From Octopus vulgaris (taxonomy: Eukaryota): a stretch of DNA of 64,000 nt. The DNA is taken from contig OX597815.1 in NCBI GenBank assembly GCA_951406725.2, positions 113,274,001 to 113,338,000 of the forward strand, given 5' to 3'. Positions 31,870-57,511 of this stretch are shown in pieces. The notes beneath the pieces are model-generated. The model was not told where the DNA came from. It saw only the letters and a program-made list of their open reading frames with translations, and ran no database searches. Position 1 is the stretch's first letter. Each line of letters starts with the position of its first letter. The position numbers and the translations under genes are program-made.

Positions 31870-33127
31870 AGTAAGGTATATGGTAAACTTTGACAGCTAC
31901 TCATTTTGTGCCATTATTATATTTTGACAATCTTTATTTTATGTTAGAAAGCTGACACATTATTTCTTTATTCTAACTCATTTTGCACTTTATAAAGTAT
32001 TTATAAATCATTTTTTTGCTATTTTTGTTTAGAGATGGATAAGTCAGAAATTCGTACAGTTTTGAAATATGAGTTGTTTCTTGGAATTACAGCATCACAG
32101 ACAGCTCGGAATATTAACAGAGTATTTCATTCTAATGTTATTACACAGCAGACAGTATAAAATTGGTTTGCAAAATTTTGTTCTGATAACTTTGACCTCA
32201 CAAATGAGCAACGCAGTCAACCAGAAACAAAGGAGGATAATGACAAACTGAAAGCCACTGTCAATTCAGATCCATCTCAAAGTGCCTGTGAATTATCGTT
32301 GTTATTTGGTTTTAGCAAGCAACCAATATTGACTCATCTAGTTCAAATCGATAAAGTGAAAAAGTTGGATAAGTGGGTTCCACATGAACTCAATGAAAAT
32401 CAGAAACAGCGACATTTAGAAGCCTGCATTATGCTACTTTCTCGTCACAAAAATGAATCATTTTTGAATCGAATTGTAACAAGTGATGAGAAATGGATCC
32501 AATACAACAACCGTAAACATTCAGTACAATGGCTGAACAAAGACAAGCCACCAAAACACAGTCCAAAAAGCAAAATTCATCAAAAGAAGCTGATGGTGTG
32601 TGTTTGGTGGTCTGGCGCAGGTGTGATCCATTACACTTTCATTAAACCTAGCTCATCAATCATGGCCAAGGTATACTGCAGCCAACTGCACCAAATGATG
32701 CAGAAACTTACAAAAAACTGCCTAGATTAGTCAACAGATCCACTCCTATTTTATTGCAAGACAACGCCAAACTACACATTGCAAAAATGACATTGGCAAA
32801 ACTATAGGAGTTGGAGTTGGAGGCCCTGCATCATCTAAAGTACTCACCTAATCTTGCCCCCACTGACTACCACTTCTTCCAGAATTTGGATAACTTTTTG
32901 ATAGGAAAAAACTTAATTCCGATGATGCTGTAATTCAGGCCTTCCAAGATTTTATTGATTCTAGATTACCAGTCTTTTACAGTTCTGGGCTGGACAAGCT
33001 ACCACTGAAATGGCAAAAGTGTATTGACAATATGGGTGCATACTTTGATGAATAAAACTATTCCTTGTATTTATAAAACATTAGCAAACTTTTTTCTTTT
33101 CTACAAATTTCATACTTGACGATCTAA
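31870..33127 (+). mobile_element. mariner element (cecropia/Hsmar1-like), left TIR not found
   Basis: Right end AATTTCATACTTGACGATCTAA-TA; contains a transposase pseudogene. Confidence 0.85.
32035..33055 (+). pseudogene. Near full-length mariner DD34D transposase pseudogene
   Basis: MDKSEIRTVLKYE..*..KVKKLDKWVPHEL..IVTSDEKW..LLQDNA..YSPNLAPTDYHFF..GAYFDE*, with a premature stop and frameshifts. Confidence 0.95.
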
Positions 33128-47282: not shown

Positions 47283-48280
47283 ATGTAACACTGATCGTAT
47301 TGAATCGTGTAAGTACTTTCTTCCCCTCCCCACTACTTCGTTAAATTATATATCCAACATACATGTATATAAAAGTGGCGACAAGTGGTTCGAAGCTTGC
47401 ATTGGATGTTTAATTTTTTCTTTTTGGGGTACGAAACAAAAGAAACAATCGTTTTAACATGGAAGACTTACTGGCCTCTGTGGTGCAGTTACAATAGCAA
47501 TAGCAGCAGCAACTGCAACAGCAACAACAAAACCAACAGTTGCTGGAATTAATGTAGAAGTCTGAAAATACTTCAGGTTCGTAACAAATTCAATTGAAGA
47601 ATTCAGCTCTAATCCAAAAGAAAGGATTACTTCCTCTGCATATTTTCGTAGATACGAAGACATCTTCAAAGATGAGTTTAAAAGTTGGTCCGATGAGATA
47701 AAAGTACGAGTAGTTTTAAGAAAGTTATCCCCTGCTGAACTCGAAAAATATAGTAATTATAGTCTGCTGAAGAAACCAGGTGAGATTTGTTTCGATGAAA
47801 CAATTTTTTATCGAAAATGTTCAGTGAAAGAAGTTCCCTGTTCAATATTCGCTGGCAATGGTCAAATTTGGTTAAAAAAAAAGATGAAGATTTCGTCACC
47901 TATTCCGAAGTAGTTAACAGAGAGTGTGAGAAATTCAAATTGGATGAGTTGACTCCGGATATGTCCAAGTCATTAATTTTTGTTCAAGGGCTTACTGCAA
48001 GCAAAGATGCAGATGTACGTTCTTAGATATTAACAAAATTAGAATAGAATCAAAATTTAACTCTGCAGGCAATAGCAGAAAAATGTCAGAGGATTATAAA
48101 TATACGACATAACGCAGATGAAATTGAAGAACAGGAATGCTCTCATATTTAGGTGTGCCGACCGGTACCAGATAAGAAAAAAATGTCAAAACCGGATCCA
48201 TGTTATGGGCGCAGTGGTCTACATTTTAAAAATATTAAACGTTTCAAGCAATGGTAAAATAGGCCATAAAAAAACCTTTC
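47283..48280 (+). pseudogene. Ty3/Gypsy (Mag/K02A2.6-like) gag pseudogene with LTR end and PBS-like TGGCGAC
   Basis: MEDLLASVVQLQ..NSIEEF..AYFRRYEDIFKDEFKSWSDEIKVRVVLRKLSPAELEKYSNY..MFSERSSLFNIRWQ..VNRECEKFKLDELTPD..LIFVQGL. Confidence 0.85.
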
Positions 48281-55785: not shown

Positions 55786-55885
<100 letters not shown>

Positions 55886-55886
55886 G

Positions 55887-56353
55887 CAAGTCAAAAATAG
55901 AAAATGCTAAAATAATTTTATAGTGAACATTTCAGTACCGGTTTCGGTCATTTTGAGACCTTTTCAACTGTAACGATTAAATAATTAAATTTAGAAAAAT
56001 TAGAAGAAAAGTTTTTTAAAGGAATATTTCTATAGTAGTGTTCAGATATAAGTGGCATTCTGCCTTTCTCTGACTCCTTGTTTGCACTTGTGTGTTCGAG
56101 CTCGAACACACAAGTGCAAACAAGGGAGTCAGAGAAAGGCAGAATGCCACTTATATCTGAACACTACTATAGAAATATTCCTTTAAAAAAACTTTTCTTC
56201 TAATTTTTCTAAATTTAATTATTTAATCGTTACAGTTGAAAAGGTCTCAAAATGACCGAAACCGGTACTGAAATGTTCACTATAAAATTATTTTAGCATT
56301 TTCTATTTTTGACTTGTTTTTTCATATATATCAACTCGTGTGTTCCTTTTCAC

Positions 56354-56356
<3 letters not shown>
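55887..56356. mobile_element. Palindromic Penelope-like insertion in (TA)n
   Basis: Spacerless palindrome centred on 56100/56101 (TTCGAG|CTCGAA). Arms 55887-56100 and 56101-56316 differ by two 1-nt indels; 40-nt unpaired tail. Confidence 0.88.
56228..56275 (+). ncRNA. Minimal type I hammerhead with U3-A8 core variant (mirror copy about 55927-55974, minus strand)
   Basis: CGTTACAG-TTGAAAA-GGTC tcaaaat GACC-GAAAC-CG-GTA-CTGAAATG. Confidence 0.78.
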
Positions 56357-56430
<74 letters not shown>

Positions 56431-57026: not shown

Positions 57027-57511
57027 GGGGCTAATGCAGATTCGCACCTCACCTTCAAAAATGCATTTTTCTGAAAAGGTTTATTCGGATTCCTAGGTTT
57101 TACATATCGGAGATTACGAATATGCAAAAAAAAAAAAAAAAAAAAATTAATTTTAACCACCTCCCAACCTAAACCCCCCACCCCATTTTTAAATGTATTG
57201 CTGTATAATTGAAGTGAGGTATGTAAAGGGCACTTTCTATGTTCATTTAGGCTAAATTGCAGAAACTGTTTCGGTATTGTTGTTGAAATCCCCGTATTCT
57301 TCTGTTACATATCGCCTTCAATGAAATTTCCGCACTTTAATATACAACACTATACATTTAAAATTGGGGGTGGGGGTAGGTTGAGGTGGAGGTTTTTTTT
57401 GTTTTTTTTGTTACATATTCGTAATCTCCGACATGTAAAACCTAGGAATCCGAAAAACTTTTTTCAGAAAAATGCATTTTTCAATATGAAGTGCAAATCT
57501 GAATTAACCTC
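57027..57511. mobile_element. Long-TIR MITE (possibly Sola-type)
   Basis: About 185-bp imperfect inverted arms 57027-57215 and 57333-57511; GRGG..CCTC termini. Confidence 0.8.

Follow-up and report, generated by a model that had tools for sequence, protein, structure and literature searches.

How does a palindrome of about 430 bases, with no spacer and with a hammerhead motif in each arm, come to lie inside a (TA)n microsatellite? The question is raised by positions 55887..56356 of a 64,000-nucleotide stretch of the Octopus vulgaris assembly (contig OX597815.1), hereinafter designated the window. The palindrome is present in the assembly as the earlier note had described it, with its centre between 56100 and 56101. 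That note had also called the arms identical save for two 1-nt indels. Specifically, this holds over arm positions 1-216, where both indels lie within homopolymer runs; farther out, the left arm lacks the T6 run of the outer end, and the tail typical of the family is present on the right arm only (Table 1). No target-site duplication is distinguishable within the (TA)n flanks.

Table 1. Features of the palindrome and its target, in window positions
Feature	Position	Strand	Remark
Left (TA)n portion of the target microsatellite	55813..55885		
Left arm, tailless pLTR copy of a Neptune-type Penelope-like element (PLE)	55886..56100	-	Reads outward; two 1-nt deletions, terminal T6 lost
Minimal type I hammerhead motif, left arm	55933..55970	-	Same motif as in right arm, opposite strand
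Joint of the two arms, head to head, within a small imperfect palindrome native to the element	56095..56106		Displaced inward from the likely RNA 5' end by a few bases
Right arm, pLTR copy with tail	56101..56356	+	
Minimal type I hammerhead motif, right arm	56233..56270	+	38 nt; predicted cut after 56267
First TA-rich patch, end point of the family's tailless arms	56323..56331	+	Putative priming site 1
Tail reaching the second TA-rich patch	56332..56356	+	Putative priming site 2; ~34 nt family-wide
Right (TA)37 portion of the target microsatellite	56357..56430		

A genome pattern search finds the same centre at 14 loci, against 0 in the reversed-pattern control, so the palindrome is not a product of chance. 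The window locus has GC as its centre dinucleotide; the remaining 13 have GG/CC. We considered, and set aside, the possibility that the GC arose by independent repair of a G-G heteroduplex: a distribution of 13 GG/CC, 1 GC, and 0 CG (n = 14) is indistinguishable from a point change or an error.

Each arm reads outward as CAG-UUGAAAA-GGUC/GACC-GAA-ACCGGU-A/CUG, which confirms the U3-A8 minimal hammerhead recognised previously in both. In the right arm, U3 is 56236 and A8 is 56241, stem II is formed by 56243-46 and 56254-57 (4 bp), and the palindromic ACCGGU occupies 56261-66. The motif contains the 3-8 pair, stem II, G12-A13-A14, A15.1-U16.1, and H17 of the minimal type I core, and each arm gives a weak Rfam match to Hammerhead_HH9 (19.7 bits with a gathering score of 52, E 0.27). 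The predicted folding energy is +0.9 kcal/mol for the monomer hammerhead, -18.5 for the dimer hammerhead, and -21.1 for the best dimer fold. In transcripts of the parent element, the hammerhead is predicted to require a dimer in order to fold, and it would be a passenger of the pLTR.

A transcript of the palindrome is predicted to fold as a hairpin of ~215 bp (-348 kcal/mol), in agreement with the suggestion of long dsRNA if the locus is transcribed. Transcripts of either strand would carry the antisense arm first, and the two hammerheads could not pair within one transcript because only one of them is in sense. Read-through RNA at the window locus would bury this sense hammerhead in the hairpin. 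Rfam microRNA matches in the palindrome were discarded; all lie under the gathering score and are caused by the hairpin or by simple repeats. Positions 56200-56235 of the window form an AT-rich tract, whose TTACAG end abuts hammerhead stem I and resembles a 3' splice site. In D. virilis Penelope, a 3' splice site is similarly placed at the hammerhead (PMC4209133).

To which element do the arms belong? In the 2.8-Gb genome (227 contigs), the arm sequence matches many copies at 99-100%, and exact matches to the hammerhead core number 1,844 (control 0). The earlier proposal of a recent PLE-type insertion with an inverted terminal repeat is borne out. A parent unit of ~4.4 kb lies between direct pLTR repeats, upstream of the longer copies. 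Its protein carries both domains of the parent for which the earlier note had suggested a search, namely RVT_1 (E 2.4e-08) and GIY-YIG (E 3.2e-04; 21.4 bits, just under the Pfam cut-off of 22.6). The endonuclease is C-terminal, CGRPNCGIC (CX4CX2C) precedes the GIY-YIG core, two Cys lie within the core, and two His follow it, in agreement with the Neptune-clade linker (CX2-5CxxC with CCHH-type residues). The family also has the pLTRs, partial tandems, inverted 5'-truncated copies, and pLTR hammerhead motif of EN+ PLEs, a one-end tail (~34 nt here, 30-40 bp in EN+ PLEs), and, judged from the insertion flanks, the Neptune-type bias for (TA)n targets. Both frames (a 411-aa ORF1 and a 757-aa RT–GIY-YIG) are open in six of eight copies, most of which had been chosen beforehand for their intact look. 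As assigned by sequence motifs, the family is a young autonomous Neptune-type PLE, and the palindrome arms are two pieces of its pLTR, not a separate non-autonomous element.

Named protein relatives of the parent come mostly from octopods and bivalves. Sequencing runs of eight studies, under three organism labels, hold at least half of the words of the element's 5' part, and none of the matching run records is listed as RNA. No intron joint is present in contigs that span most of the pLTR and ORF1 (four presumed-RNA runs, three studies), which does not imply that introns are absent. Three copies of the element lie head-to-tail with ~4.4-kb spacing at G000:C9:10674347-10683600, and the 3' region of the element at L031:2400-2650 (minus strand) has a variable (TTC)/(ATC) repeat block ahead of the pLTR.

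ORF1 and the RT-EN frame overlap in -1 phase at U UUU UUA, which we take to be a slippery heptamer, in 11/13 copies with the ATG in view (for example L031:5056-5116, minus strand; also L060-L089). A programmed frameshift between them is likely, because the first Met of the RT frame (residue 41) sits behind a motif conserved in relatives. No frameshift-stimulating stem of at least 4 bp is found within 70 nt downstream of the heptamer. A PLE ORF1 set off by a frameshift is described in a figure legend of PMC8557442, which leaves the clade unstated.

With search patterns in which the 3-8 pair and the palindrome were held fixed, the genome also yields hammerheads of both the C3-G8 and the U3-A8 kind with one stem II in common; the stem II sequences number at least five in all. 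Retention of U3-A8 in 99 of the 100 matches listed (of 1,844) was considered as a mark of selection and rejected, the family being too young to show it; its mean divergence from the commonest base is 0.7%.

The arrangement of arms across the family defines how the insertions are built. We fetched 72 loci: 12 with the same centre and, from the 100 listed hammerhead matches, 20/21 head-to-head pairs and 40 further regions; 18 of the 100 matches were left out of the fetched regions. Half of the loci (36/72) are head-to-head, with one hammerhead arm per strand, and all 36 have one tailed and one tailless arm. Three loci were not scored as pairs: L053, whose left arm is just 23 nt, and L174 and L179, where the inverted tailed arm is short and lacks the anchor. 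Two further palindromes, one with one tailed arm and the other (L205) with two tailless arms, bring the total to 37 of 38 scored two-armed loci. The end points of both arm types, the tailless end and the tail end, are TA-rich patches. This pairing of one long with one short end suggests that both cut target strands likely start copying the element RNA.

The two arms of an insertion share a haplotype. They differ in 13/806 comparisons at polymorphic sites (1.6%), and shuffled partners differ at 27.5%, with a minimum of 18.3% over 1000 shuffles. In one pair, L137, the arms differ at 4/22 polymorphic sites.

The centre of the palindrome lies close to a preferred truncation point. Counted on the reverse strand only, as forward counts are inflated by overlapping matches, 31 copies start right after (TA)n no more than 12 nt from the centre point; at comparison positions, whose anchors differ in conservation, the counts are 2 (~70 nt upstream), 6 (~35 nt downstream), and 2 (hammerhead cut site). 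The last number, which is like the controls, does not support hammerhead-cleaved RNA as the main template. Among the 20 pairs, 9/40 arm ends fall within the same 21-nt interval. From these truncation points, we infer an RNA 5' end at the Inr-like TCACA by the centre. An internal promoter is present in D. virilis Penelope (PMC2377424). Just inside this likely 5' end, at a distance of a few bases, is the imperfect palindrome of the element, at which the arms are joined in 14 loci. At L129:715-732, a (TA)8 filler joins two arms that both end at the likely RNA 5' end.

A search for the canonical hammerhead core gave 175 matches (control 21), and most of those listed belong to a second family, a tandem 359-nt retrozyme, whose hammerhead has a C3-G8 pair and likewise carries ACCGGT. 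The similarity of the retrozyme to the PLE is short and at chance level only. Similarly, its head-to-head insertions, among the 100 matches listed, have one short and one long end in 12/12 cases. The ends lie at unit positions 208-213 and 252-258, both TA-rich, and the insertion sites are TA-rich as well (L192-L203, e.g. G000:C1:20001400-20005400). Non-LTR retrozymes are defined by tandem non-coding hammerhead units; what the window locus has is one inverted pair, the sequence of which is identical to a coding element's pLTR. U3-A8 hammerheads with the stem II of the retrozyme occur in pairs 358 nt apart at G000:C1:67409518-67409905 and 67470907-67471294, and likely represent a sister retrozyme.

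Our preferred reading, to which we give a rough probability of 0.68, is that the palindrome arose in one insertion, in which both nicked strands of (TA)n primed cDNA on the RNA of the Neptune-type PLE and the two pLTR copies were joined head-to-head. Specifically, the GIY-YIG domain would nick both (TA)n strands, leaving two 3' ends that read (TA)n. On the pLTR RNA, the first UA-rich patch would serve as annealing site for one of these ends, and the second patch, which lies 34 nt downstream, for the other. The two cDNAs would extend toward the RNA 5' end, stop independently, and then be joined at their 3' ends, at the window locus at the likely RNA 5' end. Where both cDNAs reach this likely start, the TCGA-GG-TCG micro-palindrome would supply microhomology, and we propose this as the reason why the palindrome is spacerless and has the same centre in 14 loci. 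Of all this, what the sequences show directly is the identity of the arms, an autonomous parent, a (TA)n target, a tailed arm opposite a tailless one, and a haplotype common to both. In favour of priming on two strands, the protein of a Poseidon PLE cuts each target strand and extends it, starts reverse transcription at two sites between which the tail lies, and is predicted to form a dimer (PMC11167929).

Against two-strand priming stand L205, with its two tailless arms, and L137, with its differing sites. Little or no microhomology is present at most inversion junctions, and the Poseidon start site has no homology to the cut DNA (PMC11167929), unlike the TA-rich patches proposed here to anneal. 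In addition, two overlapping cDNAs made on one RNA would need either strand displacement or two pLTR copies. In pairs L126, L128, and L138, one arm stops close to the start site and its partner continues well past it, a weak hint that two pLTR copies served as template. Since 25 of the 33 single-armed loci are tailless (the other 8 are tailed), the second primer would often fail to extend. Gene conversion between arms could also add to their likeness.

The published view is self-priming: a single cDNA (or a template of antisense RNA) folds back on itself and primes its own copy, after which staggered endonuclease cuts in the intermediate leave just one end with the tail. The intermediate that is cut may be extrachromosomal. 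Junction palindromes are read as self-priming in PMC3846280, and PMC8557442 ascribes the tail to resolution of an intermediate by EN. Self-priming accounts directly for the shared haplotype, and the central micro-palindrome could snap back. However, a copy of a target-attached cDNA cannot outrun its template at either end, and a tailless first arm cannot give a tailed second, so the tailed arm must reach at least as far 5'. Contrary to a simple snap-back of one target-attached cDNA, 8 of 20 pairs have their longer arm on the tailless side; 6 have it on the tailed side, and in the other 6 the two lengths lie within 50 nt of each other. Moreover, a staggered cut of fixed geometry would bind the tail to one arm type, whereas the tail lies on either side of the central GG (left 7, right 4; n = 11) and its ends are RT start sites in PMC11167929. 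We thus consider self-priming unlikely.

An extension of two-strand priming, quite improbable in our judgement, is that two-ended integration is by design: a protein dimer would prime both target strands on two different UA patches, the ACCGGU palindrome of the hammerhead would act mainly in RNA pairing, so that two copies of the pLTR are loaded into the particle, and the 359-nt retrozyme would hitch-hike by the same signal.

The earlier note had favoured a distinct non-autonomous or retrozyme-like element, and a MITE-like or retrozyme-like palindrome that moves as a unit would have the same centre and similar lengths at its loci, as is the case for the 14 loci here. The family data do not support it. 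The same-centre palindromes have several haplotypes also found in long copies, their tail side varies, and they are the short end of a head-to-head continuum that extends to 4 kb; the window locus has no tandem array. Such a unit is very doubtful, and the palindrome is better described as a short two-armed insertion of the autonomous family. A sequencing or assembly fold-back artefact is scarcely credible: perfect palindromes are error-prone, the arm differences sit in homopolymer runs, the GC centre is unique among the 14 loci, and the locus is known here from the assembly alone, but the arms end at two different family-typical sites with different flanks, and the one-tail rule also holds in kilobase-long inversions with unequal arms and in the retrozyme. 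The locus is real in the assembly and is in kind an ordinary PLE insertion.

Other than the PLE sequence, the window has a second inverted repeat at 57029-57509 (117-nt arms, 87% complementary, 247 nt apart), which is MITE-like and unrelated to the PLE. Frames at 32161-32730 and 47566-47913 match Transposase_1 (E 5e-23) and DUF7083 (E 8e-11), respectively. No host gene emerged from the 36/100 frames (≥90 aa) scanned, among which these two matches alone passed the cut-offs.

How the inverted repeats and tails of PLEs arise is named as an open question in PMC8557442, and the counts across this family speak to it. The family-level pattern makes this question of PLE integration testable: a single tail per pair, a common source for both arms, and arm lengths that vary freely lead to a clear in vitro prediction for a young element with open frames. 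The same signature in the retrozyme gives direct genomic support to the proposed mobilisation of animal retrozymes by PLEs. On one chromosome, there are at least 20 head-to-head pairs for every 100 hammerhead copies, which would make the family a likely source of hairpin RNA. A literature search by title and abstract opening, mostly among open-access papers, returned no twin-priming account of PLE inversions and no report of the one-short/one-long end signature for retrozymes; the rule may have been published.

In L1 twin priming, both target strands prime and an inversion results, with inverted pieces that do not overlap; here, in contrast, both arms copy the same 3' end. The PLE literature, including PMC12602865 and PMC6431247, already describes the U3-A8 minimal hammerhead, pairs on opposite strands, palindromes at junctions, a tail that is often one-sided, and insertion into (TA)n. 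As in the Neptune EN+ PLEs described in PMC8557442, the family has an RT with a C-terminal GIY-YIG, a CX4CX2C linker, a Cys pair and His residues within GIY-YIG, pLTRs, partial tandems, inverted 5'-truncated copies, a one-sided tail, (TA)n targets, and a separate ORF1. Unlike those elements, the window locus contains pLTR sequence only. The hammerhead resembles the minimal metazoan PLE hammerheads of PMC4209133 in being of type I with a short stem I, in the palindrome at positions 15.2-16.2, in the U3-A8 variant of the core, which has ~1,300 hits in Schistosoma, and in opposite-strand pairs 100-700 bp apart. It differs in stem II, which has 4 bp and is not preceded by an unpaired base, compared with 7-8 bp in the schistosome motifs of the same paper.

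Adineta vaga Penelope also has head-to-head pLTRs and a palindrome at the pLTR 5' end (PMC3846280). Also described among the Penelope elements of Adineta vaga and D. virilis are a tail of 31-34 bp on one inverted pLTR and an Inr-like motif (PMC3846280; PMC2377424), the D. virilis repeat being 34 bp (PMC2377424). Unlike the self-priming proposed for Adineta vaga in PMC3846280, arm lengths and tail side here favour two primers. The in vitro behaviour of Anolis Poseidon PAc resembles the proposed two-strand priming: its AT-rich target is cut and extended on each strand, and the tail is delimited by two start sites; the hammerhead is dispensable for its insertion (PMC11167929). The start sites of PAc are AC-rich and non-homologous to the target (PMC11167929), whereas the UA-rich patches here match (TA)n. 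The type I hammerhead is shared with non-LTR retrozymes, for which PLEs have been proposed as mobiliser (PMC7229834; bioRxiv 10.64898/2026.07.22.740005). Unlike these, the window locus has no tandem non-coding unit, and a true retrozyme family exists separately in the same genome.
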